Assembly: GCA_963643505.1 (NCBI GenBank)
Contig: CAVIKF010000008.1
Location: 2,363-66,362 of the forward strand
Direction of reading: 5' to 3'
From: Eggerthellaceae bacterium
Lineage (GTDB): Bacteria; Actinomycetota; Coriobacteriia; Coriobacteriales; Eggerthellaceae
Length of the DNA stretch: 64,000 bases
In this document: positions 2,412 to 18,757 of the stretch, in pieces
Layout of the letters: every line of letters begins with the position of its first letter
Position numbering within the stretch: position 1 is the first letter of the stretch
Translations under genes and position numbers: made by a program
Notes under the pieces: generated by a model
Database searches by the model: none
What the model was told of the DNA's origin: nothing
What the model saw: the letters and a program-made list of their open reading frames with translations, nothing else

Positions 2412-5273
2412 ATGCTCAAACGATGGTTGTTGGTAGTGGTCACGCTTTTTGTGCTGGCCATCCCCTTGGGGGCATTCGGTGTCGAGTCGACCCTGCAGGG
2501 CGAACCTGCCTTACAAGGCGGTAGCACCCAGCAAGGAGCGCCTGCCCTGCAAGCAGAGTCAACCTTGCAAGCAGAGCCGACCCCGCAAGGAACCGCAACC
2601 CTACAAGAAAACGACCTCACGCCAAACACGTTCATCGCACTTGGTGAGCCAGGCGCTCCGTCGGGGACTCCTGACGACCCCTTCCTCATTTCGACCGAAG
2701 AGGACCTGGCCGCCTTCGCAACGAGCGTCAATGGCAAGCGTGTGACCAACGGTGTGTGGGAGGACGCGCAATCAGGTGCCCACGACTATGCGGGGCTCAC
2801 GGTACAACTTGCCCAAGACATCACGCTGACCTCGTCATTTACTCCTATCGGTATCGGTATGAACATATCCGGTTCTGTCGCGACCCCGATATGCTTTTCG
2901 GGCATCTTCGATGGCCAAGGCCACACCATCAGCGGACTGTATTTTACAAAAGCTTCGAACCCTCTGATCAATAGCAACTATCACGGGGCGCAATGGTTCA
3001 GCGCGCTGTTTGGAGCAGTGAAGGACGCGAACGTTATCAACCTGGTGGTCCAGTTGTCGCCTAAGGCCACGTTTAGCGTCAACACTCTCTCCTCTGAGGC
3101 AAGCGCCGGGTTGATAGCCCAAGTCGTAGGGGGCGATACAATTGTGACCTGTTGCGGCGTGGTAGGAGACCTTTCGGGCACCTCCTCCCACCTCGGCGGC
3201 ATAGTGGGCCGTGTCGAGGGCGGAACGTTGGACATGTCTTATTGCTACCACCAAGGCAAGCTTGTGACCGCATCTTCCGGTGGCGGCCTGGTGAATTGTT
3301 CATCCGCCACGGTGAAGTTGACCTCTTGCTACCAAGCGGGGCAGGTCTCGTCCACGAACACGAGCACCTACGCGTCTCGGTTCTTCGGCCAATTGGTGGG
3401 TACGGGCTCGGGCTATACGTTGGCGGGGTGTGTCGCGTCCTCAACCGATGACTTGGCAGGCGGAAACGCCAAAAACAAGCAGACAGGGTGTCTGTCCGGG
3501 ATCGAGGTTTGGAACACCACTGCAGTCCAAGGTGCGCTTGGCACCCAATACTTCGGGTACGGAGAGGCCCCGACCACCTTCCCTGAGCTTGTTGCCAAAG
3601 CGCAGCCGAGCTACGTCGTGTCCTTCTCGGTCGGAAGTGACGTGGCTGGGGCGAGACCGTCCTCCTTCAAGGCCGCACCAGGAACATCCATCACCATCCC
3701 TACCAGCACGCTGACGCGCAAGGGCTACGTCTTCTCCGGATGGCGGATCAGCGGGGCGCCGGGGGAGACGGGCTCGTCGGGAGAGGCGCCCGCGCCGGGG
3801 GAGACGGACGCGACGTTGTACAACGCCGGCGACACTCTTTCCATGCCGCGCGGCAATCTTAGCTTTGAGGCGGCGTGGACCCTTGTTGAGGCGGTGGAGA
3901 TCTCCACGGAGGCCGAGCTTCGCACCTTTGCCGAGGGAGTCAACGCAGACACGATAAAGACCGACAACCTGCGCTACGTCTTGACGTGCGATATCCAACT
4001 TACGAGTCCTTGGACGCCCATCGGCAACGACAAACACCCATTCGAGGGGATCTTCGATGGCCAAGGTCATGTCGTTAGCGGCATGCAGGTCACCAACGAC
4101 TCCCTGTCCTCAAGCGACTCCTCTACCGCAAGCACCTATGCCGGATTCTTCGGTTACGTGAGCGGTGCCGATATCACAAGCCTCGGCGTCGAGGGGACCA
4201 TCGACGCGGATTCGGCCACGTGCACAGGCGGGCTCGTCGGTTCCACGACAGGGAGCGCTGCAACGTCAAACAAGCCCGAGGACATGACACACGTGAGCGC
4301 ATGCTACGCGAACGTGACAATAAACGCTGGCGGCTTTGCGGCGGGTTTAGCGGGCCGCTCGACACGCACGAGCTTTGAGGATTGCTATGCCGCCGGATCG
4401 GTCCGCCTTGTCTCGGGCGGCAAGGCGGTAGGCGGCTTGGTGGGATACTACCAATCCGCGTCTTTTTCAGACACGTCCGCCCCGGCAATCCAGCGCTGCT
4501 TCAGCGTCTCGACGGTTGCGTCAGCCGAGGAGGGAGCGTGTGCGGGCAACCTCTTTGGCAAGGTCAGCGAGTACTACGCGAAATGCGACAAGGCCGCATC
4601 GTGGTCGCGCGCGATGGAGGTATACGCCCTTGCGAGCGACCTTTGCGCCTACTACACCGAAAGCAATAACGGGGATACTTCCAAACTCGCAACCGAGTTT
4701 GAGCCCTTGTACGAAAAGTCATCCGCGGACATGAAGGCCGATACCTTCCTTCAAGCCATGGGCTCCGCGTTTGTGGCGGACAGCTCCGACGAGAAGCTCC
4801 AAAAAAACAACGGGTTCCCGATCTTGGCATGGCAACAGGTCTTGGTGGCCCCGATCTCGATCTCAACGACGCCCTTTGCGACCGCGGGGGGCGAGGCGCT
4901 CTACCTGGTCACCTACACAGGTGATGTCGCAGAGGGCAAGATGCCGACCATCAAAGGCGAGGCGTGCTATTGGAACGGGAGTGCATACGTCACGTTGATG
5001 ACGCGCTCCGAGGCGGGTGCCTTGGTGTATGCGGATGTTGCACAGGTTGAGGGTTCGGCGCCCCAAGCGACGTCCTCTGACGTGAATGGGGACGGGAGCT
5101 TGTCCATCATCGACGCCCAAATCGCCTATGACCTGGGCGCGGGACGCTACAACGGATTCGACAAGCTCGATTGCGGCGCCTGGCTCCGTGCCGATGCGAA
5201 TGGGGACGGGGTCCTCGATGCGGCGGACGCTTGGGCGATTCAGCATGCGATACATGAGGGCTTTGATGTTTAA
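2412..5273 (+). CDS. Secreted GLUG-like beta-helix protein with Listeria-Bacteroides-type repeat and C-terminal dockerin-like module (953 aa)
   Basis: The ORF spans 2382-5273. I prefer ATG 2412: GGGGTGGGGA lies 9 nt upstream and the start gives the signal peptide MLKRWLLVVVTLFVLAIPLGAFG. Q/P/T-rich degenerate repeats (STLQGEPALQG...) follow. Two entry modules (ISTEEDLAAFATSVNG...FTPIG...FSGIFDGQGHTISGLY and ISTEAELRTFAEGVN...WTPIGNDKHPFEGIFDGQGHVVSGM) are each followed by GG(I/L)VG turns. One Flg_new-like repeat is present (YVVSF...KGYVFSGWRISG...FEAAWT). Confidence 0.85.
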   Translation: MLKRWLLVVVTLFVLAIPLGAFGVESTLQGEPALQGGSTQQGAPALQAESTLQAEPTPQGTATLQENDLTPNTFIALGEPGAPSGTPDDPFLISTEEDLAAFATSVNGKRVTNGVWEDAQSGAHDYAGLTVQLAQDITLTSSFTPIGIGMNISGSVATPICFSGIFDGQGHTISGLYFTKASNPLINSNYHGAQWFSALFGAVKDANVINLVVQLSPKATFSVNTLSSEASAGLIAQVVGGDTIVTCCGVVGDLSGTSSHLGGIVGRVEGGTLDMSYCYHQGKLVTASSGGGLVNCSSATVKLTSCYQAGQVSSTNTSTYASRFFGQLVGTGSGYTLAGCVASSTDDLAGGNAKNKQTGCLSGIEVWNTTAVQGALGTQYFGYGEAPTTFPELVAKAQPSYVVSFSVGSDVAGARPSSFKAAPGTSITIPTSTLTRKGYVFSGWRISGAPGETGSSGEAPAPGETDATLYNAGDTLSMPRGNLSFEAAWTLVEAVEISTEAELRTFAEGVNADTIKTDNLRYVLTCDIQLTSPWTPIGNDKHPFEGIFDGQGHVVSGMQVTNDSLSSSDSSTASTYAGFFGYVSGADITSLGVEGTIDADSATCTGGLVGSTTGSAATSNKPEDMTHVSACYANVTINAGGFAAGLAGRSTRTSFEDCYAAGSVRLVSGGKAVGGLVGYYQSASFSDTSAPAIQRCFSVSTVASAEEGACAGNLFGKVSEYYAKCDKAASWSRAMEVYALASDLCAYYTESNNGDTSKLATEFEPLYEKSSADMKADTFLQAMGSAFVADSSDEKLQKNNGFPILAWQQVLVAPISISTTPFATAGGEALYLVTYTGDVAEGKMPTIKGEACYWNGSAYVTLMTRSEAGALVYADVAQVEGSAPQATSSDVNGDGSLSIIDAQIAYDLGAGRYNGFDKLDCGAWLRADANGDGVLDAADAWAIQHAIHEGFDV
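5079..5270 (+). other. Dockerin-like C-terminal module (two DxNxDGxxxxxD loop-helix segments)
   Basis: The two segments are DVNGDGSLSIIDAQIAYDLGAG and, ~40 aa later, DANGDGVLDAADAWAIQHAIHEG. This matches the duplicated Ca-binding loop plus helix signature of type-I dockerins. Confidence 0.65.
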
Positions 5274-5497: not shown

Positions 5498-8400
5498 ATG
5501 AGGAAGATTACGCACCCGAAAGGTGTTGCGGCGGCGCTGTGTGCAGCGGTTTTGTGCATCGGGGTCGGCCTAGGAGTGGCGTCTATTCAAGGGGTACCCG
5601 TTGGCAACGGCTCGGACGACCTTCTTGTCAAGAAGGACACCTCCGCCGCGACGTATCCGCTTGCAGAAAACTACGCGCCGGAATCAGAGGCAAAATTTGC
5701 CCAGGTCATGCACATCGACAACGGTTCTGGCGAGGTCCTTACCTTGGCCGATTTGCCTTCGGGAAGCTACTCGGGCTTCCTTTTTTCCCTCGCTGATACG
5801 GCACAAGGTGCTGGCGAGGTCGCCTCGGTTGCCGAGGAGGCGGCCAAGGAGGGCCTCATCACGCAAGTGCACGGCTCCCTTTATGAGGTGACCTCTCTCG
5901 ATACCTTGGCAGGCCTGTTCTCAGCCGACCAATTGGAATATGTCGAGCCTGACACCAGGGTCTATCTTGTCGGTGACATCGATGACGACGCCCGCGCCAC
6001 AGAGGCGCTCACGACCCGGGGCGGAACCAGCAACAATCCCGCCCCGGCCTACCCGCCAAGCGACCCGTATTATCTGTCGGGAAATCTTTGGAACCTCGAC
6101 ATGCTCAACGTGGAGGGCGCGTGGGCCCAAGGCCTTGATGGCGATCCTTATGTCCACAACAACACGCCGGTGCGCGACACGAAGGTGCGCGTGGCGGTTA
6201 TCGACACAGGTTTGTACGGAACTGGTACCTCCGAGAACAAGCACGAGGATATTGACTATACCCATGTGGTCGACGGGAAAAACTTCGTCACGAGCGACGA
6301 GGGTGAGCCCGACGTCAAGGGACATGGCACTTTTGTCTCTGGCCTTATCGCGGCAAAGGTGAACAACAGCGTCGGCGTGGCGGGTCTAATGCCTGGTGTC
6401 GACATCGTGCCTTGCAAGGTGTTTGACTCCACCACGGCATCAACCTCCGACGTCGTCGATGCGATCTATTACGCTGTGGATGACGCGCATGTGGACGTCA
6501 TCAACATGAGCCTTGGCGGCGAGTACAACGAGACATCGCTCCAACGTGCGTGCGACTATGCCGTTGAGCAGGGCGTTCTCGTCGTGGCTTCAGCCGGCAA
6601 CGACGGCGTTTCCACCCCGAACTATCCTGCGGCATACGACTCCGTCGTCGGCGTCGCGTCCGTCGATTCCTCCCAAGAGCGTTCCACCTGGTCCCAATAC
6701 GGCAAGAGCGTCTTTGTCACCGGCCCGGGAGAGAAAGTCACGAGCACGTACAACGAGTCCGAGACTTCGTACAAGACGGCAAGCGGAACCTCGTTCTCCA
6801 GCCCTGAGGTTGCCGCCCTCGCGGCGATGTGCAGGTCGGTCTATCCGGACATGTCCCAGGATGTGTTCAAGGAGTTCCTCATCGAGACTTCGACCGATCT
6901 CGGCACGAAGGGTTTCGACGACTATTACGGATACGGATTGGTCAACTTCGAGGCTATGGCCCAAGCCGTCTTGGCAAGCCAGACCCTTCCTTGGTACTCC
7001 CTGTCCTTTAACGTGACCGATACCGCGGGCACGTCCATCCAAGGGGCGACCGTGGTCCTCAAGGCAGCCGAGGACATCACGTGGGCCGACGATCCCGATG
7101 AGGGCATCGAGGAGGGAAGCCTCGCCATCGGGGACGTCGTGGAGGCGCAACAAGACGGTACGTTCAAGGTCCATCGCGGCGTCTACTCGTACGAGGTCTC
7201 AGCAAACGGATATTACCTGGGCACGGGCACCCTCAAGACTTACTCTGCCGAGCAAACGGTGGACGTCTCCTTGGAGGAGGCATATGAGGTCGTCATGAAC
7301 GTCAAGAACAGCGCGGGGGACTATCTATCCGGTATCCACCTTGCGGTGTCGTCCTCCACTGGACGTATGGAGACCCCCAAGACAAACGGCGACGGCTCCT
7401 TTGTCTACAACCTCATGAGCGGCGTGTACTCCTTTGAGGCGTCTGCTCCCGTGACCTACGAGAAGGTGAGCGGCCAATTCACGGTCCAACGCGAAAACAA
7501 GCAACTTACCATCACCCTCAACACCGCCGCCGAATTGGCAACCGTCTCTCTTAGCGCCCATGACGCCGAGGAAGAAACGACGCTTACCCAGGTCTCGACG
7601 GCGCTCTACGATGCCCAAGGGATGCTTGTCTCCGCGCGGGAGGACGGGACGTATCGTCTTGCCCGTGGCAAGGAATACAAGGCGATCCTTACCCGTTTGG
7701 GCTATGAGGATGCAATTTCCACCTTCACGGTCGAAGACGCCGAGACCATGTTGCTTGACGTGGCCATGACCGCAGCTGAGTGCTCGATCTCCTTCCGTCC
7801 CGTCACCGAGGACAGCGTTGCGGTCAATGACGCAACGATCGTGGTGAGAGATGCTTCGGGCAAGGTCAAGAGCCCTTCTGCCACCGATCCCCTCCGCTAC
7901 AACCTCAAAGCGGGCACCTACTCCTATACGCTTTCTGCCCCCGGCTATGAGGATGTCGTTGCAAACTTCAGCGTTTCCATCGAGTCGCGTACCCTGACCG
8001 TCGTCATGTCCGGCATCCCCCAAACCGTCTCCTTCTCCATCACGGACGCCAAGACCGGGCAGGCCTTGGAAGGCGCTTCCGTGAAGGTTATGAGCGCGAC
8101 AAACGACGGGGCCATTCGCGCCAACTCGGACGGGACCTATTCGTTAGCTCCTGGAGAGTATCGGTATGGCGCCTATTGCCTGAACTACCAAAGCAAGCGC
8201 GGCTCCTTCATCGTGCATGGCGACACGCTCTCCATCGACATCTCCCTTGATCCCTACTCGGGCTCCACCGAAGGCTTCGCCGGCGGCTCGGGTACGGTTG
8301 ACGACCCCTACCTTATTGCGACGGAGGATCAGCTCCGCTATCTTGCGAACCAGACCGATATCGTGCGCGCGGGACGTACCGATGCCGATACGAACCAAAA

Positions 8401-11400
8401 GCGCAGCGTGGAAGGTTACTACCAACTCGTTGCAGACATCGTGCTTACCGACGCGTGGTTGCCGATCGGAAACTACGAGAACAGCAACAACTACGTCGCC
8501 TTCTCCGGGACCTTCGACGGCGCGGGCCACACCATTTCCGGCTTGAGCACGATCGAGTCCGACTATGACGCCCAAGGCCTGTTCGGCGTGGTGCAAAACG
8601 CCACCATCACAAACCTCACCGTCGAGGGAAACGTGACAGGAGACAGCTATGTTGGAGGCATCGTCGGGTACGTTCGCTTCCTTTACGATTCCGAGGGCTC
8701 CGATTGGAACACGGGCGCGACCCGCATCTCCAATTGCTGCAACCGCGCATCGGTAACAGGGCGTTATGCGGTTGGAGGCATCGCCGGATCGACCTCTGGC
8801 TCCACCTCGTCCAACGAGGATTATGGAACCCTTGTCAGCCAGTGCTGCAACTACGGGGTGATCCATGCCCAACGCAATGGCGACTTTGACAGGCACAGCT
8901 CGGCCGCGGGCGGCGTCGTCGGCTCCGCAGGCAATTGCAAGGTGGAATACAGTTACAACCGCGCAACCGTGGAGGCGGGATATGTCGCAGGCGGCGTAGT
9001 CGGACAATCCCTCGGCCTTGCGGCGGTCTACAACTGCTATAACACCGGGTATGTATATGACCACGTGACGGCTGCGGGGTATGAGGGCAACTCTGGCAGC
9101 ATCGCCGGTCGGCTCGTGAAGTCGGCGCTGTCTGATTGCTACGGTCTTATCCCTGCCGACGAAAACGCGATCTATGCCCCGATCGGTGCCACTGACACGA
9201 GCACCACTGTCGCGAACTACAAAATGCTCGATCGTGCAAGCATGTGGCGCTCCGACGACTTTGTGGCAATGTTGAACCTTGATGCCGTGACAGACACGAT
9301 GACCACCTCATTTGTAGCAGGCGGAAGCTACCCGTTGCTCAAATGGGAGGTGTCCCCAGACGCCATCTTGGCCGAGGATCCCTATATCACGCAAGACCCC
9401 ATCTCGCCTGCGACCTCCTATAAGCAAGATGCTGAAGCCGCAGAGCTCACCGCAGACGTCGATCCGGTAGCGGATGGAGGCGTTTTGTCCTGGCAATGGT
9501 TCGAGTCTGACGGCGAGTCGGGAAGCGAGTGTGTGCCCATCGCGGAGGCGGCGGGTACGGGAACCCATGCTACCTACACGCCTTCAACTGCGACAGCCGG
9601 TACGCGTCACTACTTCGTCGTCTTCAAAAACACCCGTACTGCCGACGACGGACGCGCAGGGTCTGCGACGGCGAAGACCGCCTCTGCTACCGTGATCGTC
9701 CGTTCCGTCATTGACGCACAAGAGCCCAAGGTGACGGCATACAACCCGTCAGCGGCCCAACAATTCAATACGGCGCTCTCGACGAAGATCACCACCGATC
9801 TCATGTTGTCGGTGGAAGCCTCTACAGGAGACGGGGGCACTTTGAGCTACCAATGGTACAAGGGCTCTTCGATGGTCGGCTCCGGCACGCCTATCGAGGG
9901 CGCCACGGACGCGACATACTATCCTGATACCTCCGCCCTTGGCACGCTGTATTACTTCGTCGAGGTCACGAACACCTACGAGCCGGGTAATGTGGCCTCC
10001 GTCAAGACCGATTGGGCAAGCGTCACGATCACCGAGTACACCATCAGCTCTTACGAGGAGCTTATGAGCTTCCGCACGGCAGTCGATTCTGGTGTTACTT
10101 TCGAGGGTCTCGTCGTGACTCTTACCTGCGACTTGGATGTCTCTCGGGCCGACTGGGAGCCAATCGGTTCTGTCGAGCACCCCTTCAAGGGCACGTTTAT
10201 GGGAGGCGTGGGCTATTCGGGCTCCACCGAGATCACGACCCATACCATCAGCGGCATCCACATTGACGGCGCCGCTATAGGTGCTGCTCGTGGGTCTGAG
10301 GTCGAAGGCGCTGACTCTCTTGGTTTCTTTGGCGTCACTGAGGCCGCGACCATTTGCGACCTTGTGGTAGAGGGCTCGATCACGGGCAAGGCCAACCGCT
10401 ATGCGGGTCTGATTGTCGGTTATGCGCTCGCAAACGGCTCATCCGCGACTGTACTTGAGAATTGTGCGACCCAGGCAAGCTCAAGCGTGGAGGGCAAGTA
10501 TTGCATAGGCGGCCTGGTAGGTTATGGATGCGTGTCGATCAAGGACAGCGCAAACCATGGTTCCGTCACGGCGTGGGGCTTCGTTCCCACAAAGGCCGAC
10601 AACTCCTTGGATACCTACTCCTATACCACCAAGGCGGTTGGCGGTGTGGTCGGCTATGCCGCCGCGGGCTCCGTGAGAGGTTGCTACAACACCGGCGACG
10701 TGACGGCGAAATCCATCGACACGACGGCAGGCGAGAAGAGCGTGTACTACGTCGGCGGCGTCGTAGGCTACGGATCCACCACCGCCAGCGTGCTCTCCTG
10801 CTTCGACACGGGCAAGGTGACGGTCGGTACTTGGGCGACGCGCAGTATCACGTTCAAACCTGCAGGTGTTTGCTATGCGGGAGCCGTCGTCGGCTACCAG
10901 GCCTACGACTACTTGTACAACATCCACTATCTTGATGGCGCGGCCGGAGAGGGCGGCGTGGGCACCAACAGCTCCGCTGGCTACGATTATGCCGAGAACC
11001 ATACCCTCGCGTTCATGAAGACCGCGTACTTCTTGGGTCAGATGCAAGACGGCTATGGCTATGGCGCCGCATTCCGCCAATCGACAAACGGCACTCCGCA
11101 CTTGGTGTGGGAGACCGATAAGACCACGGGAAGCAACCTGGCCGACGCGGCAGAGCCGTATCTGTATGACGTCACCATTGACGGTGTGGACGACATCACG
11201 AGCACCTGGTCCACCTACTTCTACCAAGGGGAAAATGCACCGGATGTGGTTGTTTGGGCTGACCAGGTCCAACCTGAGGGCGGCCACTTGACCTATGAGT
11301 GGCAAAGCCGCCCGGTCGGGGGCACCGATGATGATTGGACTGTCGTGGAGGGAGCGTCTGGGGCCTGTGCGGCAACAGGTGACCACTACACCGCCTCACT

Positions 11401-14400
11401 TCCCATCAGCACCGAGACGACTGCGATCGCGGAGTACCGTTGCGTGGTCACCAACACGTTGGACGGCGCCACGGGCTTGGCCACATGTGAAAACACGACC
11501 TCCGCGCTGACCATCGAGATCCGCGAAAACATCGGGACCTTTGCCCTGGCCGACCCCTCCCAGGAAAACAGCGCGAGCAACCCTTGGGTTATCAAAACCC
11601 CTGAGCAATTGCACTTCCTCGCTCTGCTCGTGAACGGCGAAACGAAGATGGTGGGAGTCGACGACAGCTCGTTCTATCAACAATACCTCGTCATCGACGC
11701 CGATCTCGACCTGTCCGGGTATGAACGTTGGGAGCCTATTGGAACAGGCGATTCCAACAACGGTTCTCCTTTTATGGGAATCTTGGACGGACGCGGCCAT
11801 GCCATCACGGGTCTTCAGATCGGGACGCAAAGCGTGCCCGCCGCGGCATCCGATTACCAAGGTCTGTTCGGCAGCGTCTGTTATGGCGCCTTGCGCAACC
11901 TTTGCGTGAGCGGCACCGTCAACATCGCTTCCGGCGGATGGATGACCGGTGGTGTCACCGCCTATGCCTATGGCGCGGCCTTTGAGAACGTCGCCAACCA
12001 TGTAAACGTTACCGGGTCGGTGCGCGTTGGCGGCATCGCCGGCACGATCGGCACGTGTCAATTGAAGGATTGCTTCAACGACGGCACCATAACTGTCGCG
12101 GAGAGCTCAAGCACCTCCCAATACGCGGTCGGCGGCATCGCCGGTTATACGTTCTACGCGCGTGAGGGCGTCGAGGATGCAGGCTTGTTCAATTGCTTCA
12201 ACGCGGGCGACGTCAGCTGCACGCTTGCCTATGGCACCGATCCCCGTTTCGGCGCGCTGATCGGTGATGACAGCACCGACTCGACACCGCTTAGCCATTG
12301 CTACTATGTCTTGGGCACAGCCACCTGCTTAAACGACGGCTCCGCCGGTACGGGCATAGGGAATGCCGATGGGTGTCTTGAGGATGTCGAGGGCTCCTTC
12401 GAGGCGGTTGAGGGCTCGAGTGACCCGCAGGTCGCGTGGATGCTCAACACCGGCAACGGAGAAGCGAAAAACTCCGGACGTTGGGGCGTAATCGCGCAAG
12501 ACGGCACCGGGGAGGGCGGCGCCGGGGATAATGCCGCTGTGCAAGGCGGCACCGGGGAGGAAGACACCACACAAGGCGGCACCGGGGAGGAAGGCACCGC
12601 AGCGCAAGACGGCGCCGTCGCTCTCGCGATTTGCGGGGCTGACCCGGTGTATCGCGTCAACACCGACGCCGATGCCGCCCAAATCACCGTGTCCGCTGCG
12701 TATGTCACGGCGGGTACGGGGGTAACCGTTACCTGGCGGGAGAAGCCGGGATTTTTGGTCAACGATGTCGCTTACGGTTTGGAAGACGCCGACCCGACGA
12801 CCTATACGTCCGTGAAAACGGGCGAAACCTTTACCATGCCGGCGGGGGATGTCGCCTTTGCCATCACCTCCGAGCAGGACAAGAGTTACCGTTACGACCT
12901 GTATGGCCTCGTTGTCGATGAGCAAGGCGTTGCGAGCACTAATGCCACGGTTGCCTTTGACGACCTCGACAATCCGCCCACGGCTCGTGAGGGGGATGCT
13001 GTCAACGTGACGTTGACGGTTGCGCAGGGCTACCAAATCAAGACGGTGAGCGCCGAGGGAGTCTTTGGCGCGAAGGTCTCCGTTGAGTGCGTAGACGGTC
13101 TGCACTACCGTTTCACGATGCCGGCAGACCTCGTGAACTTTACGGTCGTGGTTGAGGCGGAGGGTTCTGCCGCCGCCAAACAGGTGCCCTCTTTGGGCAT
13201 CACCGCCGACAACGTCCATATCTACAACGCCAACGACACATACCATACTGGCAACCTGGTATACGACACGCTCACGCTCTCCGGTACCTCCATGGGAAGC
13301 GACCGAACCCTTACCAGCTACAACTTGGAGACGGCAAGCTCCACCCCGGCGTTGTATGAGCAAACCTATTCCTTTGCCGATGGCGCTTCCCACCGTGTGA
13401 CGGGCGTGAGTATCGTCGCGCTTATCAAGCAATTTGTGGACGACCCGACGACGCTGATCGTGACGACGCCGGTGTTGTTCGAGGCGGGCGACGGTTCGTC
13501 TTACTCTTGCACGTGGGGAGAGCTCACCTCTTTGAGCTACAACGCCTATACCGATACCACCGGGCAACCGACGGTTCGCGCCCTTCCGGCTTTGTTGGCC
13601 TTCGGCCAGGATGGTAAGCCCTATGAGGACAACGCGCTCCACCTCGTCTTTGGTGCCACGAGTGCTACAGACGACAACACGGCTCGTTGTTTGTCGGGGG
13701 TGACCCGCATCGCGATCGGCGAGGACCTCAACTATTCCCAGCATTGCTACAGCACGTATGCAGACCTTTCCAGCGTCGGCGGATCTGACGTGACCGTGAA
13801 CATCTATGAGGGCACGACCCTTGCGGGCACGAAGACCTATTCCGTCAAGGACATCGAGGCGCTTGCCAATGCTGATCGCGGCGGCATCTATCGCGGCCTG
13901 TACTCCACGTTGGTTTATGAGGACAACGAGGAGAGCTATTCGGGTCCCTATTCGGACTATTACGAGGGTTATAGCCTCTACGACGTGTTGCTTGACGCCG
14001 GCTTGCCTGAAAACGCCGCCGCTTCCTCTCCCGAGGCCAAGGTCCAGTTCTACCAACTCGGCGAGTGGACTGAGGCATGGAAGACTGTCAACGTCAGCCT
14101 TGGCTACCTCGCAGGTAACGGTGCGAAGGGCGTTGGGGACTACAGCGGCAACTTCACCATGTATGGCAGGGAGGACGGCTCCGACACCGACGGCATCGCC
14201 ATCCGAGGCATGGCTCCGACCCTCGCGTACGGCAAAAACGATCTGCCGCTTGTCTATGCGAGTGGCTCTACCGGGGTGAGCTCGACGGCGTACAACTACC
14301 GTGGACCCCTGATTGCCATGTTGCCGCAAAATGAGGTTGAGGGCGGATATGTCGCCGACCAGACGGTCTCCGCGTGCTATCTTGGCCAAATCGATGTGTA

Positions 14401-14839
14401 CCTTCCCGCTCCCGAGGAGCCTCTCTTCTCCGTCGCAACATCTGACATAACTGAAGTGAGCGGGTTGCGAATTGTCACCTACACCGGGGACGTCCCTGAA
14501 GGAAGCGTCGTCTCTGTCGCAGGTAAGACCATGCTTGCGCGAGACGGTAACTATGTCTGTTTGCTTCCGAGAGAGCAGGCGGCCTCGCTCACGAATGGCT
14601 CCTTCTCCACGGTTGAGGGGAAAACCACCGTGGTTACGCGAGGAGATGTCAATGAGAGCACGACCATAGACATCATCGATGCCCAGATTGCCTACGATAT
14701 TGCGTGCGGTAAGTACCGTGACCTGTCGGTGATAGGTGAACCAGGTTGGCTTGCCGCGGACTTCAACCTCAACGGCGAGATTGATGCGAGTGACGCGCTC
14801 GCGATCATGCACCAGGTCCACGCGTTGTACAGGTCTTGA
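5498..14839 (+). CDS. Giant (3113 aa) secreted subtilisin-family (S8) protease fused to beta-sandwich repeats, three GLUG-like beta-helix blocks, Ig-like repeats and a C-terminal dockerin-like module
   Basis: This is a single 9342-nt ORF with GAGAAGGGA 5 nt before ATG 5498. The N-terminal hydrophobic signal or anchor is AAALCAAVLCIGVGLGVASI. An I9-like propeptide is present (...SADQLEYVEPDTRVYL), followed by the S8 motifs listed in the next feature. Entry modules are DDPYLIATEDQLRYLANQ, YTISSYEELMSFRTAVDSG and NPWVIKTPEQLHFLALLVNG, each with WxPIG...F.G.F.G.GH.I.G. Repeated motifs of the YQWY, SWQWF and YEWQ type are present. Confidence 0.9.
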   Translation: MRKITHPKGVAAALCAAVLCIGVGLGVASIQGVPVGNGSDDLLVKKDTSAATYPLAENYAPESEAKFAQVMHIDNGSGEVLTLADLPSGSYSGFLFSLADTAQGAGEVASVAEEAAKEGLITQVHGSLYEVTSLDTLAGLFSADQLEYVEPDTRVYLVGDIDDDARATEALTTRGGTSNNPAPAYPPSDPYYLSGNLWNLDMLNVEGAWAQGLDGDPYVHNNTPVRDTKVRVAVIDTGLYGTGTSENKHEDIDYTHVVDGKNFVTSDEGEPDVKGHGTFVSGLIAAKVNNSVGVAGLMPGVDIVPCKVFDSTTASTSDVVDAIYYAVDDAHVDVINMSLGGEYNETSLQRACDYAVEQGVLVVASAGNDGVSTPNYPAAYDSVVGVASVDSSQERSTWSQYGKSVFVTGPGEKVTSTYNESETSYKTASGTSFSSPEVAALAAMCRSVYPDMSQDVFKEFLIETSTDLGTKGFDDYYGYGLVNFEAMAQAVLASQTLPWYSLSFNVTDTAGTSIQGATVVLKAAEDITWADDPDEGIEEGSLAIGDVVEAQQDGTFKVHRGVYSYEVSANGYYLGTGTLKTYSAEQTVDVSLEEAYEVVMNVKNSAGDYLSGIHLAVSSSTGRMETPKTNGDGSFVYNLMSGVYSFEASAPVTYEKVSGQFTVQRENKQLTITLNTAAELATVSLSAHDAEEETTLTQVSTALYDAQGMLVSAREDGTYRLARGKEYKAILTRLGYEDAISTFTVEDAETMLLDVAMTAAECSISFRPVTEDSVAVNDATIVVRDASGKVKSPSATDPLRYNLKAGTYSYTLSAPGYEDVVANFSVSIESRTLTVVMSGIPQTVSFSITDAKTGQALEGASVKVMSATNDGAIRANSDGTYSLAPGEYRYGAYCLNYQSKRGSFIVHGDTLSIDISLDPYSGSTEGFAGGSGTVDDPYLIATEDQLRYLANQTDIVRAGRTDADTNQKRSVEGYYQLVADIVLTDAWLPIGNYENSNNYVAFSGTFDGAGHTISGLSTIESDYDAQGLFGVVQNATITNLTVEGNVTGDSYVGGIVGYVRFLYDSEGSDWNTGATRISNCCNRASVTGRYAVGGIAGSTSGSTSSNEDYGTLVSQCCNYGVIHAQRNGDFDRHSSAAGGVVGSAGNCKVEYSYNRATVEAGYVAGGVVGQSLGLAAVYNCYNTGYVYDHVTAAGYEGNSGSIAGRLVKSALSDCYGLIPADENAIYAPIGATDTSTTVANYKMLDRASMWRSDDFVAMLNLDAVTDTMTTSFVAGGSYPLLKWEVSPDAILAEDPYITQDPISPATSYKQDAEAAELTADVDPVADGGVLSWQWFESDGESGSECVPIAEAAGTGTHATYTPSTATAGTRHYFVVFKNTRTADDGRAGSATAKTASATVIVRSVIDAQEPKVTAYNPSAAQQFNTALSTKITTDLMLSVEASTGDGGTLSYQWYKGSSMVGSGTPIEGATDATYYPDTSALGTLYYFVEVTNTYEPGNVASVKTDWASVTITEYTISSYEELMSFRTAVDSGVTFEGLVVTLTCDLDVSRADWEPIGSVEHPFKGTFMGGVGYSGSTEITTHTISGIHIDGAAIGAARGSEVEGADSLGFFGVTEAATICDLVVEGSITGKANRYAGLIVGYALANGSSATVLENCATQASSSVEGKYCIGGLVGYGCVSIKDSANHGSVTAWGFVPTKADNSLDTYSYTTKAVGGVVGYAAAGSVRGCYNTGDVTAKSIDTTAGEKSVYYVGGVVGYGSTTASVLSCFDTGKVTVGTWATRSITFKPAGVCYAGAVVGYQAYDYLYNIHYLDGAAGEGGVGTNSSAGYDYAENHTLAFMKTAYFLGQMQDGYGYGAAFRQSTNGTPHLVWETDKTTGSNLADAAEPYLYDVTIDGVDDITSTWSTYFYQGENAPDVVVWADQVQPEGGHLTYEWQSRPVGGTDDDWTVVEGASGACAATGDHYTASLPISTETTAIAEYRCVVTNTLDGATGLATCENTTSALTIEIRENIGTFALADPSQENSASNPWVIKTPEQLHFLALLVNGETKMVGVDDSSFYQQYLVIDADLDLSGYERWEPIGTGDSNNGSPFMGILDGRGHAITGLQIGTQSVPAAASDYQGLFGSVCYGALRNLCVSGTVNIASGGWMTGGVTAYAYGAAFENVANHVNVTGSVRVGGIAGTIGTCQLKDCFNDGTITVAESSSTSQYAVGGIAGYTFYAREGVEDAGLFNCFNAGDVSCTLAYGTDPRFGALIGDDSTDSTPLSHCYYVLGTATCLNDGSAGTGIGNADGCLEDVEGSFEAVEGSSDPQVAWMLNTGNGEAKNSGRWGVIAQDGTGEGGAGDNAAVQGGTGEEDTTQGGTGEEGTAAQDGAVALAICGADPVYRVNTDADAAQITVSAAYVTAGTGVTVTWREKPGFLVNDVAYGLEDADPTTYTSVKTGETFTMPAGDVAFAITSEQDKSYRYDLYGLVVDEQGVASTNATVAFDDLDNPPTAREGDAVNVTLTVAQGYQIKTVSAEGVFGAKVSVECVDGLHYRFTMPADLVNFTVVVEAEGSAAAKQVPSLGITADNVHIYNANDTYHTGNLVYDTLTLSGTSMGSDRTLTSYNLETASSTPALYEQTYSFADGASHRVTGVSIVALIKQFVDDPTTLIVTTPVLFEAGDGSSYSCTWGELTSLSYNAYTDTTGQPTVRALPALLAFGQDGKPYEDNALHLVFGATSATDDNTARCLSGVTRIAIGEDLNYSQHCYSTYADLSSVGGSDVTVNIYEGTTLAGTKTYSVKDIEALANADRGGIYRGLYSTLVYEDNEESYSGPYSDYYEGYSLYDVLLDAGLPENAAASSPEAKVQFYQLGEWTEAWKTVNVSLGYLAGNGAKGVGDYSGNFTMYGREDGSDTDGIAIRGMAPTLAYGKNDLPLVYASGSTGVSSTAYNYRGPLIAMLPQNEVEGGYVADQTVSACYLGQIDVYLPAPEEPLFSVATSDITEVSGLRIVTYTGDVPEGSVVSVAGKTMLARDGNYVCLLPREQAASLTNGSFSTVEGKTTVVTRGDVNESTTIDIIDAQIAYDIACGKYRDLSVIGEPGWLAADFNLNGEIDASDALAIMHQVHALYRS
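6100..6970 (+). other. Peptidase S8 catalytic domain of the 3113-aa protein
   Basis: Catalytic residues read directly: D236 in RVAVIDTGL (gac 6203-6205), H276 in VKGHGTFVSG (cat 6323-6325), oxyanion N368 in ASAGNDG (aac 6599-6601) and S432 in ASGTSFSSPEVAALAA (tcg 6791-6793). Confidence 0.9.
7010..8140 (+). other. Five tandem ~75-85 aa beta-sandwich repeats (CarboxypepD_reg/PEGA-like) after the protease domain
   Basis: The units start YSLSFNVTDTAGTSIQGATVVLK, YEVVMNVKNSAGDYLSGIHLAV, ATVSLSAHDAEEE, CSISFRPVTEDSVAVNDATIVVRD and QTVSFSITDAKTGQALEGASVKVM. Each contains a DGT(F/Y)...G.Y.Y...A.GY core. Confidence 0.6.
12497..12601 (+). repeat. Intragenic ~30-nt tandem repeat encoding a QGGTGEE(D/G)T linker
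   Basis: CAAGGCGGCACCGGGGAGGAAGACACCACA (12542-12571) is followed by CAAGGCGGCACCGGGGAGGAAGGCACCGCA (12572-12601). A degenerate copy lies upstream (12497-12541). Confidence 0.85.
14645..14836 (+). other. Dockerin-like C-terminal module (first loop degenerate)
   Basis: Segments are DVNESTTIDIIDAQIAYDIACG and DFNLNGEIDASDALAIMHQVHAL. The spacing and helix pattern match the modules at 5079-5270 and 18524-18754. The preceding VTYTGDVPEG segment is shared with the 953-aa protein (VTYTGDVAEG). Confidence 0.55.
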
Positions 14840-14862
14840 TGCCTGCCGCATTTGGCTTCGGT

Positions 14863-14901: not shown

Positions 14902-14904
14902 CGC

Positions 14905-14953
14905 GGGGAGGAGGCCGATCTCAAATCCTTGGGGTCAGCCTCCTCCTTTTTTG
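14905..14953 (+). terminator. Rho-independent terminator of the 3113-aa gene
   Basis: GGAGGAGGC (14907-14915) pairs with GCCTCCTCC (14938-14946), followed by TTTTTT (14947-14952). Confidence 0.8.
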
Positions 14954-15086
14954 TCTCGTTTTGCTCTCGTTTCGCTGCGTTAGGTTTTGCAACCTACCTC
15001 GCTGCATTTTGATGCAACCTGACGGGTGTACGCGGGCGTGTGAGTGTTATACTAAAATGGCTATTATTCGAATAGTGGAATAAATA

Positions 15087-15106
15087 GGAAAGGAAAGGAA
15101 AGGAAA
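15087..15106 (+). repeat. (GGAAA)4 pentanucleotide repeat forming the Shine-Dalgarno region of the 1215-aa gene
   Basis: ataGGAAAGGAAAGGAAAGGAAAccaATG: four perfect units ending 3 nt before ATG 15110. Confidence 0.9.
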
Positions 15107-15109
15107 CCA

Positions 15110-18100
15110 ATGCGAAAGTTAGTGAAAGAGCGCTCATTTCGCAAGGCGACAAGCATCGCGTGCTCTTTGACGCTCGTTGCGTCGATGTGCCCCGCTGCAG
15201 GTCTTGCGTGGGCGACTGACGGGGGGTTCTCCTCTGACGACTCTGTGACAATCGGACAAACCGAGGGCGACCTTGACGTCAACGTCCTTGCAACCGACGC
15301 CAATCTTAGCGATTCGACCGGGCTCAAGGAAAACGCCGCCACAGACCAAGGCGCGCTTGGTACCCTCGCATCTGACAGCTGGTACTCGCCGGATGCCAAG
15401 GAGATGACCATCACATCCTATGACGAGATGGTCGAGTTTGCCCAGATCGTCAATGGAACCCATGAGAGCTTTGCCCAGGATTCCTTCCGCGGCAAGACCG
15501 TCACCTTGGCCAACGACATCGACATGGGCGGTGTCCAAGGCGTAGACGGTACATGGACTGGCACCAGTTGGGTCCCCGTCGGAAACGCTACCTATACTTA
15601 TAGCTCGACCGCCACGGATTCCAACTACACCATCACCTCCGGCTATGCTTTCGAGGGAACGTTTGACGGCGCCGGCCACTCCTTCTCCAATCTCTATATC
15701 AGCTCTGACAAGGGCTACCTCGGCATCTTCGGTGCCGTGGGTGGTACCGATACGGTAGGCGCCGCAGGATATGGAACCGTCAAGAACTTCGTAATCGCTT
15801 CCGGTTCGGTCACCTGCACCAACACGACCGCCCAAGCCACCGACTTCGTCGGCGCTGCGGTTGGCAAGCTCAACGCGGGCGGCACCATCGAGGGCATCAC
15901 CAACTATGTCGAGGTGTATGCGCCCTATACCATGTGTGTTGGTGGTATCGTCGGATTCGCGGGCACCTCCGTCCAGTGGGGCTCCAACATGTCCTCCAAC
16001 AACCGCAATATCTATCTGGGCAACCCCTCTGGCGACAACACCTATGTCTTGCGCTGTGCCAACAACGGCGACATCATCGGCTATTACAAAGACGGTGGCA
16101 TCGTCGGAGAGAACGCCGCCAAGGTCCTCTATTGCTACAACACCGCAACCATCGAGCAGGGTATGAGCGGCTCCGGCGGCGGCATCGGAGGCATTGCTGG
16201 CCGTAACGGCGACCGCAATATGAACTACTCCGAAGTTGGCACCATCATGTACTGCTACAACACCGGTACCATCAAGGGCACCAGCCCCATCACCAAGGCT
16301 ACCATTCGAGGCTACGGTGGAATCACGGGATGGTCGAGTCTTAACTGCCTCGTCGCGAACAACTATTCCGCGGGCGTAGTGGAGACAGGCTACTCTGACT
16401 ACCAGGCAATCTGCGGTCGTGGGGACTCTCCCTACACGGGTCTTGAGAACAACTATGCCCTAAACACCTTAAACGACAGATACACTTCCGCCTCTGACGC
16501 TCCCAAGATGGGCATCAAAAAGACCAGTGATGAGTTGAAGACGTGTGCCAACCTGATGAATGTCGGTGCCCGCGCCTTTGTCGCTGACTCTGCAACCGAG
16601 CCCATCAACGATGGTTATCCGATCCTTTATTGGCAATCTTCGACCTACGATCCCAACGCCACCATCACGAACACGGCATGGAGCGGTGAGGACACGGTCA
16701 AGACCAGCTACTCTGCAGGCCAATCCTTCGATACGGCCAGCTTGAGCTTTGTGGCTACCTTCAGCGACGGTACCCAGCAAACAGTCACCGATTTTGACCT
16801 CACGATCGATGGCCAGCCTATCAACGACCCCCTGACCAAGAGCGATAACGACAAGACTGTCGTTGCAAGCACCGTTTTTAACGGCGTGACCTACTCCAAG
16901 GAGTTCAAAATCACGGTCGTTCCCACGACGGTGACGGAAATCGCCGCGAGCTCGAACTCCTATGCATCGCCGTATCGCCTTATCTATAGCGCCGGCGACA
17001 CGTTCAATCCGTACGGTTTGACACTCAAGGTCACTTACTCCAACGGCAAGTATGAGAGGTTCGACTTGAGCACATCTTCTACTTGTGCCACGAAATGGTC
17101 GGAAATGGAGGCAAATGGATGGTCTTGCAACCTCGCCACCATCACTTCTGACGACAACGGCAAGAAGCCGGTCCTTACCTATACTTACGACGACATCGCC
17201 TACACCTACGAGGCGCCGGCGACCATCTCCGTCGTCGCCAAACCCAGCCAAGACGAGCAGGGCAACTATCTCATCACCAACGTTGACGATATGAAATGGG
17301 TTGCAAACGAGGTCGAATTCGGTACCTCCACCTCCATTGGCAACAACTACTACGATTCCAACGTTTCCGCGAAGCTCATGGCTGACATCGATTTGTCCGG
17401 TGTCGAGTACATGCCCATCGGCGGCAAGGTCGGCTACTACACGTATTGCTTCAGCGGTACCTTTGATGGCAACAACCACAAGATCACCTATTCTGACACG
17501 ACCACGTTTACCAGCACCAGCAACTCGTACGCGGGCATCATCGGCTACCTTGGCACTTCCGGTGTCGTCAAGGATCTGACCGTTGAGGGCTCGGTTGCTC
17601 CTACCGTGAACTTTGGCGGAGTCGTATACCAGGTGTATGGCACTAACGCCAAGGTTGAGAACTGCACGAACAACGCCACTATCAACGCGACGTCGAGCGT
17701 TGGTGGCATCACGTACAATGTGGCCGCAAAAGCCACGGGCGCAACCATCACCAATTGCACCAACAACGGCAACATCACCAGCTCCGGCTCCAGCGTCGGC
17801 GGCATCATGGGTGTTGCCAGCCTTAAAGACTACTCGATCACCGATTGCACGAACAACGCTACCGTCAAAGCTGGGTCCAACGCTGCCGGCATCCTCGGTA
17901 ACGGCACGGGCACCATCAAGAGGTGCCTCAACGCCGGCCCCATCATCGCAACGGGCGGCAAAGCAGGTGGCATCATGGGCAATTGCTCAAACACCTCGAC
18001 GACCTACGGCATCTTCGATTGTGCCAACACGGGTGATGTTACCGCGACGGATGCAGCCGGTGGATTGGTTGGTGCAACCTATATGTCCGGATATGCCAAC

Positions 18101-18757
18101 TCCTACAACACCGGCGCAATTACCGTTACCAACGCCTCCACGTCAAATGGTGCCGGCGGACTGATCGGTGTCTATACCTCCAACAAGGCAGGCGCCACCG
18201 TTACGAACTGCTATAACGCAGGTACCGTTACCAGCAACAACAACGGCGGTGCGCTTATCGGATATGACACCAAGGGCGCGACCCTTACCAATTGCTACTT
18301 CGTTGGTGACGAGTCGACCAGCGTATGGAACGGCTCTGCCGCCAAGACGACAGGCTACACGGCTCAGACCGCCGACCAGATGAAGTCCGCCGCGACGGTC
18401 ACCGCCCTCGGCACCGACTTCAAGGCCGACGGGGATGGGACATCCGCGTACTCGATCAACAACGGCTACCCTGTCCTCACGTGGCAAAAGACCGACCCCG
18501 ATAAGCTCGTTGGCCTTGCCGGCGACGTGAACAACAACGGCAAGCTCAACATCGTCGACGCCCAGATCACCTACGACCTCAGCACGAATCGCTACGAGGG
18601 CGACCCCCTCTCCGCCTTGCTCGCGAAGTGGGGCGAGGGAACTCTCCTGGTCCAGCTCCAGAAGTTCGCCGACGTCAACGGCGACGGCACGCTCGATGCC
18701 GCCGACGCACGTGCGATCCAATACGCCATCCACAACGGAGGCGTCTTCGGGGCGTAA
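15110..18757 (+). CDS. Secreted GLUG-like beta-helix protein with Ig-like (Big_3-like) repeats and C-terminal dockerin-like module (1215 aa)
   Basis: The signal peptide is ...SLTLVASMCPAAGLAWA-TDG. Entry modules are MTITSYDEMVEFAQIVNG...WVPVG...FEGTFDGAGHSFSNLYI and YLITNVDDMKWVANEVEFG...YMPIGG...FSGTFDGNNHKITY. Many GGI(V/A/T/M)G turns are present. Two or three Ig-like units occur, such as YSAGQSFDTASLSFVATFSDGTQQTVTDFDLTIDG and YSAGDTFNPYGLTLKVTYSNGKYERF. Confidence 0.85.
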   Translation: MRKLVKERSFRKATSIACSLTLVASMCPAAGLAWATDGGFSSDDSVTIGQTEGDLDVNVLATDANLSDSTGLKENAATDQGALGTLASDSWYSPDAKEMTITSYDEMVEFAQIVNGTHESFAQDSFRGKTVTLANDIDMGGVQGVDGTWTGTSWVPVGNATYTYSSTATDSNYTITSGYAFEGTFDGAGHSFSNLYISSDKGYLGIFGAVGGTDTVGAAGYGTVKNFVIASGSVTCTNTTAQATDFVGAAVGKLNAGGTIEGITNYVEVYAPYTMCVGGIVGFAGTSVQWGSNMSSNNRNIYLGNPSGDNTYVLRCANNGDIIGYYKDGGIVGENAAKVLYCYNTATIEQGMSGSGGGIGGIAGRNGDRNMNYSEVGTIMYCYNTGTIKGTSPITKATIRGYGGITGWSSLNCLVANNYSAGVVETGYSDYQAICGRGDSPYTGLENNYALNTLNDRYTSASDAPKMGIKKTSDELKTCANLMNVGARAFVADSATEPINDGYPILYWQSSTYDPNATITNTAWSGEDTVKTSYSAGQSFDTASLSFVATFSDGTQQTVTDFDLTIDGQPINDPLTKSDNDKTVVASTVFNGVTYSKEFKITVVPTTVTEIAASSNSYASPYRLIYSAGDTFNPYGLTLKVTYSNGKYERFDLSTSSTCATKWSEMEANGWSCNLATITSDDNGKKPVLTYTYDDIAYTYEAPATISVVAKPSQDEQGNYLITNVDDMKWVANEVEFGTSTSIGNNYYDSNVSAKLMADIDLSGVEYMPIGGKVGYYTYCFSGTFDGNNHKITYSDTTTFTSTSNSYAGIIGYLGTSGVVKDLTVEGSVAPTVNFGGVVYQVYGTNAKVENCTNNATINATSSVGGITYNVAAKATGATITNCTNNGNITSSGSSVGGIMGVASLKDYSITDCTNNATVKAGSNAAGILGNGTGTIKRCLNAGPIIATGGKAGGIMGNCSNTSTTYGIFDCANTGDVTATDAAGGLVGATYMSGYANSYNTGAITVTNASTSNGAGGLIGVYTSNKAGATVTNCYNAGTVTSNNNGGALIGYDTKGATLTNCYFVGDESTSVWNGSAAKTTGYTAQTADQMKSAATVTALGTDFKADGDGTSAYSINNGYPVLTWQKTDPDKLVGLAGDVNNNGKLNIVDAQITYDLSTNRYEGDPLSALLAKWGEGTLLVQLQKFADVNGDGTLDAADARAIQYAIHNGGVFGA
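18524..18754 (+). other. Dockerin-like C-terminal module
   Basis: Segments are DVNNNGKLNIVDAQITYDLSTN and DVNGDGTLDAADARAIQYAIHNG. Confidence 0.65.

Follow-up and report, generated by a model that had tools for sequence, protein, structure and literature searches.

The question raised by this locus is what three unusually large secreted proteins attach to. Their genes lie consecutively on one strand of a 64,000-nucleotide stretch of DNA from an Eggerthellaceae bacterium (contig CAVIKF010000008.1; the whole stretch is called the window below), and all three proteins end in the same module with two calcium loops, which an initial annotation had read as a dockerin with no visible docking partner and a receptor that was unknown. 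We find that, judged by their sequences, the C-terminal modules of genes 1 to 3 are divergent, asymmetric dockerins, and that the three proteins are probably dockerin-only cargo whose dockerins bind cohesins on other members of the same protein family, the genes for which would lie in other parts of the genome. The expected receptor is a cohesin from outside the window because the dockerin subfamily to which the modules belong is linked to a cohesin in 39 of the 90 members recovered from related genomes, including a protein of the closest sampled genome (locus L044) and four homologs of gene 3, and the absence of a docking partner is therefore probably wrong at the level of the lineage.

Gene 1 (2382..5273, on the + strand, as are all features of the three genes) translates as an open reading frame (ORF) of 963 aa, or 953 aa if the start is M11 (ATG, nt 2412), while the ORFs of gene 2 (5498..14839) and gene 3 (15110..18757) translate as 3113 and 1215 aa. 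Inspection of the three N-termini reveals a basic stretch and then a hydrophobic stretch with small residues at its end, and putative signal peptides were read from the sequence at 2412..2480 in gene 1 (MLKRWLLVVVTLFVLAIPLGAFG), 5498..5593 in gene 2 (MRKITHPKGVAAALCAAVLCIGVGLGVASIQG) and 15110..15214 in gene 3 (MRKLVKERSFRKATSIACSLTLVASMCPAAGLAWA), in agreement with the three same-strand secreted ORFs reported initially. The dockerins occupy 5076..5270 in gene 1 (aa 899-963; calcium loops DVNGDGSLSIID and DANGDGVLDAAD), 14642..14836 in gene 2 (aa 3049-3113; DVNESTTIDIID and DFNLNGEIDASD) and 18518..18754 in gene 3 (aa 1137-1215; DVNNNGKLNIVD and DVNGDGTLDAAD), the two loops of gene 3 being separated by an insert of ~37 aa. 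The calcium-loop pattern D-x-[ND]-x-[DNS]-x6-D fits all six loops, which are canonical 12-residue loops, in keeping with the duplicated loop-helix architecture originally described. Pfam Dockerin_1 (PF00404) matches each of the three modules, with scores of 20.0 bits (E = 7.9e-4), 20.4 bits (5.9e-4) and 26.6 bits (6.8e-6) for genes 1, 2 and 3, of which only the last exceeds the curated cut-off (gathering threshold) of 22.9 bits. A hidden Markov model (HMM) of the family dockerin, constructed from 70+ related modules with the window sequences and their orthologs left out, was compared with the six-frame translation of the 64 kb and recovered genes 1, 2 and 3 only (E of 2.5e-25, 1.3e-23 and 7.5e-25, respectively), with no further match in the window at E <= 1. 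When a profile of nine modules was searched against the PDB, nearly all of the 18 matches listed were dockerins, four of them at E <= 0.01, including 8ajy_B (the best, 1.6e-5), 5m2s_B (3.8e-4), 1daq and 2mte. The dockerin of P0004, a homolog of gene 3 with a dockerin ~50% identical to that of gene 3, is predicted by AlphaFold2 (AF2) to fold as loop-helix ... loop-helix with a pLDDT of 85-94. Immediately preceding the dockerin, genes 1 and 2 also encode a pre-dockerin ('X-like') module of ~75 aa, detected by HMM at 4851..5078 (aa 824-899) and 14420..14644 (aa 2975-3049), which gene 3 lacks. An HMM seeded from these two copies identified 27 proteins including the two of the window, all of them dockerin-bearing; in all 27 the module adjoins the dockerin on its upstream side, and it sometimes lies between a cohesin and the dockerin.

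Relatives of the three genes were found by scanning one genome per GTDB species with the peptide [IV][VIT]DAQ[IV][ATV]YD, which gave 102 confirmed places from which 78 loci were kept. About four-fifths of these loci belong to metagenome-assembled genomes (MAGs) from Hadza gut, chicken and other samples that bear the label uncultured Eggerthellaceae or Eggerthellales, which places the source organism of the window in the class Coriobacteriia of the Actinomycetota. A few come from bins assigned to Hallerella, Lachnospiraceae or Bacteroidaceae, with a G+C content of 42-50%, and these could represent either mis-binning or real presence in other lineages. The dockerin is strictly C-terminal across this set, as the IVDAQxxYD motif stands 45-72 aa before the end (51-72 aa in complete ORFs) in 93 of the 94 ORFs from the 78 loci and the window. 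Dockerin-bearing ORFs of the loci range from about 300 to 3176 aa, and 48 of the 58 complete ones have an N-terminal hydrophobic segment. The family is clearly expanded, with at least 17, 12, 11, 11 and 8 members in individual MAGs. Eighty distinct modules align as GDVNxNGxxNIVDAQxxYD, a linker of 20-45 aa and W..ADVNxDxxxDAxDAFAIQ, with different invariant residues in helix 1 (IVDAQ[IV]xYD) and helix 3 (DAxDAFAIQ). The 80 modules thus lack the near-identical duplicated segments that underlie the dual binding mode of the classical type I dockerin, and since the repeats are not near-identical a symmetric dual-binding mode is unlikely. Among paralogs within one MAG the dockerins are 52-92% identical and the cargo 23-57% identical over partial alignments. 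This higher conservation of the dockerin fits a partner shared by the paralogs and suggests that it is a proteinaceous, co-evolving one.

A candidate for such a partner was found fused to the dockerins themselves. Pfam reports Cohesin in six of 30 dereplicated dockerin-bearing relatives (best 5.3e-10), and the four examined singly score 27.9-33 bits against a curated cut-off of 24.1, each lying immediately upstream of a dockerin, as in L057 (cohesin at aa 1127-1232, dockerin at aa 1254-1320). A clade cohesin HMM, seeded from the Pfam-positive relatives and run iteratively on the 733 genes in these loci, raised the number to 41 cohesin proteins, 39 of which end in a dockerin, and 43% of the family members found (39 of 90) thus carry a cohesin directly upstream of the dockerin. 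The minimal proteins with this cassette are 313-322 aa long and comprise a signal peptide, a cohesin-like domain, a ~65-aa module and a dockerin. Compared with solved cohesins, the clade profile matches CipC (2vn5_A, 9e-7), 1g1k and NagJ of C. perfringens (2jh2, 7e-5). With the cohesin profile as query, an exhaustive HMMER search returned 938 clusters at E <= 1e-3 from 1.84 billion representative proteins; the single-cohesin matches among the top 12 all have their cohesin 80-220 residues from the C-terminus and are therefore cassettes. Multi-cohesin matches (for example P0139) were considered as a possible scaffoldin of the lineage and rejected on account of their classic Bacillota-style features and modest per-domain scores. 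When the clade cohesin profile was used in a word-indexed search of proteins, five fragments only were obtained, and a metagenome scan for wall-anchored cohesins using the divergent cohesin type of the small proteins gave one short orthologous contig only. Pfam, applied to 28 neighbouring proteins that are secreted or of unknown function, revealed no cohesin among the 25 families listed of the 54 matched. The sole two cohesin proteins without a dockerin stand side by side on L011, a 43%-GC contig binned as Lachnospiraceae, where a cohesin-dockerin protein with a dockerin of the same subfamily is followed by these two (8303-15585), the 394-aa one having the order signal peptide, cohesin, SLH. 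Together with the 11 loci of a 'Hallerella' bin (50% GC), L011 suggests either that the module family has spread horizontally between gut lineages or that contigs were mis-binned.

Orthologs of genes 1, 2 and 3 are present at 74, 86 and 81% amino acid identity in CAZOGL01, the closest sampled MAG, in the same order and followed by orthologs of a 316-aa membrane protein and a polysaccharide-synthesis protein. The genes 1 and 2 orthologs are on L001 and the gene 3 ortholog on L022, and a contig in ENA repeats the arrangement of genes 1 to 3 and the downstream orthologs. As this MAG is labelled uncultured Eggerthellaceae, the actinobacterial-type genome suspected initially is supported by ordered orthologs. 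The same MAG encodes a 1002-aa dockerin protein (L044) with a cohesin at aa 796-906, recognised by the clade HMM at 1.7e-14 and by hhalign with a probability of 98.1% (E 1.3e-13, 42% identity). Cohesins also occur in homologs of gene 3, as P0003 and P0004, its nearest non-orthologous homologs, and P0009 and P0013 all four possess the cohesin-dockerin cassette. P0004 shares 43% identity with gene 3 over 87% of its length, and its contig (L079, 61% G+C) carries four dockerin genes, of which three also encode a cohesin. In gene 3 the dockerin is fused straight onto the GYPVLTWQ end of the cargo, and in both gene 3 and its 82% ortholog P0002 it directly follows GYP[IV]L[AT]WQ, exactly where P0004 holds an inserted cohesin. 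The AF2 model of the P0004 cassette (pLDDT 80.9, pTM 0.73) has a beta-sandwich at residues 15-144 and then the dockerin, and Foldseek comparison of this model with the PDB places cohesins at the top (2jh2_A at 1.3e-7, 6kge_A and 2xdh; probability 1.00). Pfam PF00963 does not match this cohesin type at E <= 0.05 in P0004 (aa 1186-1300), P0151, P0164 or L044 (aa 796-906), all four of which the clade HMM detects. The genome scan with PF00963 proposed in the initial annotation would thus probably give a false negative, because the cohesin type of the nearest relatives escapes the Pfam model, and for the same reason 'dockerins without cohesins' in surveys can be a detection artefact.

We suggest that Sec would export the cargo, in this case one multi-domain S8 protease and two adhesin-like proteins with GLUG beta-helices, and that the exported dockerin, folded with Ca2+, would bind, presumably with some specificity, a cohesin that the source genome is expected to encode. 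The cohesin would be carried mainly by the C-terminal cohesin-dockerin cassettes of paralogous family members encoded elsewhere. A cassette protein could both accept and donate a dockerin, so that chains or meshes would be possible rather than a scaffoldin loaded with enzymes, and in such chains or meshes the dockerin-only proteins 1 to 3 would be terminal units. It is conceivable, if rather doubtful, that this extends to a scaffoldin-free cohesin-dockerin coat (an 'adhesosome') in which dozens of cassette proteins, each able to bind the next, polymerise round the cell, with dockerin-only giants as terminal exchangeable units; in either form the assembly would presumably be held on the cell in some way. 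If the modules do bind, cohesins and dockerins would organise part of the cell surface in gut Actinomycetota of a little-known group, the C-terminal cassette would make its carriers natural self-assembling surface proteins, and protein engineering would gain a new orthogonal cohesin-dockerin pair.

Several results weigh against docking to cohesins of other family members. The window itself lacks a detectable cohesin, as had been reported initially: Pfam finds none on 23 ORFs, the clade-specific cohesin HMM reaches a best E of 0.8 on the six-frame translation of the 64 kb, and hhalign of the cohesin profile against the window proteins of 1614, 1907 and 316 aa gives probabilities < 1%. Genes 1 to 3 and their orthologs (L001, L022 and L082) are without the cohesin of their nearest homologs, and only one of the four dockerin genes sampled from the closest MAG has a cohesin. 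We also found no cohesin-only anchoring scaffoldin in the Eggerthellaceae-labelled loci, and neither these loci nor the window contain a multi-cohesin scaffoldin or a cohesin anchored through SLH or sortase; as the loci were chosen by a dockerin motif, and are a dockerin-biased sample, this absence is weak evidence. On the side of the dockerin, two of the three Pfam scores are under the curated cut-off, the AF2 model of the isolated gene 1 dockerin (from a nine-sequence alignment) is of low confidence (pLDDT 61.5), with a helix after each loop, and dockerins rank first in a Foldseek search with the isolated window dockerin model at E-values that are not significant (E >= 0.3).

The missing cohesins could mean that the dockerins of the window are orphans in a source genome without any cohesin, the module binding a secondary cell-wall polymer, a host or dietary glycan or another protein fold, or only stabilising the C-terminus. 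Genomes with dockerins and no cohesin are indeed widespread, as Peer et al. (2009, FEMS Microbiol Lett 291:1) reportedly also noted, and both the cohesin-free window and the lack of the homologs' cassette in genes 1 to 3 and their three orthologous loci would be expected under this explanation. We consider it unlikely given that a cohesin of the matching lineage is present in the closest sampled genome, that the fusion to cohesin in 39 of 90 family members is physical, and that the conservation of paralog dockerins above their cargo suggests a partner that is itself a co-evolving protein.

The fusion could also be read as an intramolecular clasp, in which the cassette dockerin binds its own cohesin in cis as a closed cap, and genes 1 to 3 would then be relicts that have lost the cohesin and have a dockerin with little or no docking role. 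The short linker between cohesin and dockerin (~5-20 aa), the defined two-module arrangement that AF2 gives for the P0004 cassette and the presence in gene 3 homologs of a cohesin that gene 3 lacks are all in keeping with this. However, the dockerins of genes 1 to 3 retain all calcium ligands and the helix signatures, which are conserved in their orthologs and therefore appear to be under selection without a cis cohesin, and many dockerin-only paralogs occur beside cassette proteins in the same MAGs, as docking in trans predicts, making the clasp quite improbable. Least credible of all is that the module serves as a C-terminal tag for sorting or secretion, comparable to the type IX secretion system C-terminal domain or the PEP-CTERM/exosortase signal, which a dedicated export or processing machine would recognise and perhaps cleave. 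A tag would suit the strictly C-terminal position in 93 of 94 ORFs, the large paralogous expansion on unrelated cargo and the conservation of a 316-aa multi-transmembrane (multi-TM) protein and a 209-aa protein directly behind gene 3, both in the window and in L022 and L082. Against it, the Sec signal peptides of the proteins are ordinary ones, and the module is a dockerin by sequence match and occurs in fusion with cohesins. Of the fetched dockerin loci, none but the orthologous L022 has a homolog of the downstream TM protein, and the loci have no candidate sorting enzyme in common.

The 316-aa protein, which has a Pro/Gln-rich tail (18900-19850, +), and the Ala-rich 209-aa protein (19927-20556, +) directly follow gene 3 and are found in the same position in L022 and L082, with 71% identity between the 316-aa protein and its counterpart in L022; the pair has neither a significant Pfam match nor any similarity to cohesins. 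As receptor or sorting machinery they were rejected on the lack of cohesin similarity in the 316-aa protein and the restriction of the TM homolog to the orthologous locus.

Docking of genes 1 to 3 in trans to cohesins of their own family can be placed against several described systems. Cohesin-dockerin assembly is usually seen as a Bacillota device for the digestion of fibre or starch. The 2009 survey by Peer et al., cited in PMC2930009, reportedly covered cohesin and dockerin modules in all three domains of life. According to a 2018 review of Gram-positive surface display, cellulosomes are found only in Lachnospiraceae and Clostridiaceae (PMC5817068), and a survey of rumen metagenomes assigned ~3% of cohesins and dockerins to Actinobacteria, giving no further detail (PMC6487960). 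Our search of the literature turned up no description of cohesin-dockerin proteins from Eggerthellaceae or Coriobacteriia and only incidental co-mentions. The novelty is nonetheless lower than the initial annotation implied, since non-cellulosomal systems with peptidase and leucine-rich repeat (LRR) cargo are already known from R. bromii and R. flavefaciens (PMC4611034, PMC2930009), the latter with 222 dockerin proteins of which many are peptidases, LRR proteins or unknowns. What differs here is the phylum, the sequence signatures of both modules, which score no higher than about the Pfam thresholds, the cargo of adhesins and proteases, the fused cassette as the dominant cohesin carrier and, so far, the lack of a dedicated scaffoldin or anchor. 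Divergent cohesins and dockerins form a large lineage-specific family in uncultured gut Eggerthellaceae of the microbiomes of Hadza hunter-gatherers and chickens.

Type I dockerins of clostridial and ruminococcal cellulosomes (PF00404; 1OHZ/2CCL; ScaH of R. flavefaciens, 8AJY) have the same C-terminal module of 65-80 aa with two loop-helix units, and the likeness extends to sequence matches, to Sec-secreted multi-domain proteins and to many copies per genome. The present family differs in its unequal repeats (IVDAQxxYD versus DAxDAFAIQ), in a longer inter-repeat linker (20-45 aa), in having two of the three window dockerins below the Pfam cut-off, in a host from the Actinomycetota rather than the Bacillota, and in cargo other than carbohydrate-active enzymes (CAZymes). 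Pfam families on the 30 dereplicated members are BspA-type LRR/LRR_5 (10 of 30), DUF285, Cadherin-like, DUF4430, S8, Glug, CAP and one GH25, the last being the sole glycoside hydrolase, and no cellulase or hemicellulase family is included among the 25 families listed of the 26 matched. A cellulosome in the strict sense, with dockerins mainly on CAZymes of the plant cell wall, is therefore not what the cargo of the window and the 30 relatives represents. In likeness to the dyads of X module and dockerin of types II and III (XDoc-SdbA of C. thermocellum CipA, 2B59/5K39; A. cellulolyticus, 4U3S), a conserved module adjoins an asymmetric dockerin on its N-terminal side, and the ~75-aa pre-dockerin module is likened to X modules by this position only; typical X modules are ~100 aa and so longer than the module found here. 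The glycosidase toxins NagJ and NagH of C. perfringens (2JH2, 2OZN, 2W1N) likewise use a non-cellulosomal cohesin-dockerin pair to link large secreted virulence or colonisation proteins, and C. perfringens cohesins are the best or near-best match of both the clade cohesin profile and the AF2 model. C. perfringens has only a handful of modules on glycoside hydrolase enzymes, whereas the present family numbers dozens of paralogs, its cargo consists of adhesins, LRR proteins and proteases, and its cohesin and dockerin are fused in a cassette.

The amylosome of R. bromii is again from a gut bacterium, with 26 dockerin proteins and few cohesins, and its dockerins are also found on peptidase and LRR proteins (PMC4611034). 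In its protein Amy4 the cohesin binds the dockerin of Amy4 itself, a sign that the protein may multimerise (Ze et al. 2015, PMC4611034). In R. bromii such a protein with both modules is the exception beside dedicated scaffoldins (Sca2-4, one of them sortase-anchored), whereas here most cohesins (39 of 41) are carried in the cassette, the Eggerthellaceae loci showed no anchoring scaffoldin, and amylases or other polysaccharide-degrading cargo did not appear save the one GH25. Ruminococcus albus also has many dockerins and few cohesins, and its dockerin proteins are thought to be tethered singly by one or few surface cohesins and not assembled on a large scaffold (Hungate1000, PMC6118326), but its cargo consists of fibre-degrading enzymes and its cohesins are not fused beside dockerins.

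The cargo of the three proteins has an entry module in common. Protein 1 comprises the signal peptide, two GLUG-type beta-helix modules, one weak Listeria-Bacteroides repeat, the pre-dockerin module and the dockerin; protein 2 the signal peptide, an S8 subtilase, CarboxypepD_reg-like repeats, three GLUG-type modules, the pre-dockerin module and the dockerin; and protein 3 the signal peptide, a GLUG-type module, Big_3-like Ig domains, a second GLUG-type module and the dockerin. The shared entry module had been described in the initial annotation, and a regular expression for W-x-P-I-G ... F-x-G-x-F-D-G-x-G-H-x-I locates seven copies, two in gene 1 (2838..2930, aa 153-183, FTPIG...FSGIFDGQGHTI; 4011..4076, aa 544-565, WTPIG...FEGIFDGQGHVV), three in gene 2 (8456..8536, aa 987-1013; 10154..10249, aa 1553-1584; 11729..11806, aa 2078-2103) and two in gene 3 (15569..15685, aa 154-192; 17408..17485, aa 767-792), accompanied by 3, 9 and 5 GG[ILV][VAT]G turns in proteins 1, 2 and 3. 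Pfam Glug (PF07581) matches gene 2 at 4e-9 and neither gene 1 nor gene 3 at E <= 0.1; it matches P0004 at 1.8e-20, and many homologs of gene 3 are annotated with PF07581. The catalytic domain Peptidase_S8 (PF00082) of gene 2 (6179..6937, aa 228-480) scores 177.5 bits (4.8e-52) and spans profile positions 2-288 of 288, predicting a full-length subtilase domain, and CarboxypepD_reg is found in the same protein at 1.3e-13. Weak matches were obtained to Flg_new in gene 1 (1.1e-3) and Big_3 in gene 3 (2.1e-3). The Pfam families of the window cargo are accordingly S8 protease, GLUG, Big_3 and Flg_new, and the non-CAZyme nature of the cargo, a subtilase plus GLUG beta-helix modules, is as first stated.

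A motif search found no LPXTG-like motif near the C-termini of proteins 1 to 3, and a C-terminal TM segment is absent because each sequence stops right after the dockerin helix, both in line with the earlier observation that the three lack a conventional anchor. Gene 3 homologs of other lineages have SLH or CWB2 repeats at the C-terminus in place of the dockerin, and a dockerin-less paralog of another family member, with the N-terminal domain in common, ends in a TM segment and a basic tail. With these SLH, CWB2 or TM ends on related cargo, the C-terminal position therefore acts as an interchangeable slot for attachment. As also reported initially, other large proteins of the window do have TM anchors: the giants of 1614 aa (36239-41083, -) and 1907 aa (51925-57648, +), neither with a Pfam match at E <= 0.01, combine an N-terminal hydrophobic segment with a C-terminal hydrophobic anchor, preceded in the 1614-aa protein by APSTGD.

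In the Hadza MAGs a conserved cluster adjoins cohesin-dockerin genes (L013 4799-13829, and also L018, L019, L035 and L045). It encodes a repeat protein of 580-806 aa without a Pfam match that ends in PPLAVGG, a TM segment and RKREQH, a ~420-aa protein likewise without a Pfam match, a MotA/ExbB-family protein, a 313-aa protein with the order signal peptide, cohesin, X, dockerin, and two related proteins with LytR_cpsA_psr (wall-polymer ligase) and CWB2 domains. A 33-bp palindrome, TTGTTGACAAATTACCCCACCTTTTGTCAACAA, is present in 47 exact copies in 27 loci of Hadza Eggerthellaceae MAGs, for example at L054 4713-4745 and 4839-4871, L037 3908-3940 and L050 9067-9099, often as inverted pairs ~125 bp apart just 3' of cohesin-dockerin genes. 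Rfam has no match to it, the window contains none of its copies even when three mismatches are allowed, and it looks like a dispersed repeat of the REP (repetitive extragenic palindromic), MITE (miniature inverted-repeat transposable element) or operator type. An apparent family of small ORFs downstream of the relatives' dockerin genes was rejected, being this non-coding dispersed repeat.

The G+C content of the window is 52-63%. Between 2 and 21 kb, promoter-like sites are fewer than in shuffled sequences and terminator-like sites are no more numerous than in shuffles, and Rfam and tRNA scans gave no match. Directly upstream of gene 1, and running off the start of the window, is a gene (1-2229, +) whose secreted-looking product combines DUF4214 repeats and Cys-rich CxxC stretches with a DUF6273 domain at the C-terminus. 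Further downstream (25919-35260, +) are genes for a hybrid histidine kinase with a seven-transmembrane (7TM) N-terminal region, a 7TM-GGDEF diguanylate cyclase, an HD_5 response regulator, a 611-aa protein that is secreted and another hybrid kinase, which has two receiver domains, a cluster which looks like a cyclic di-GMP (c-di-GMP) module set between surface-protein genes.

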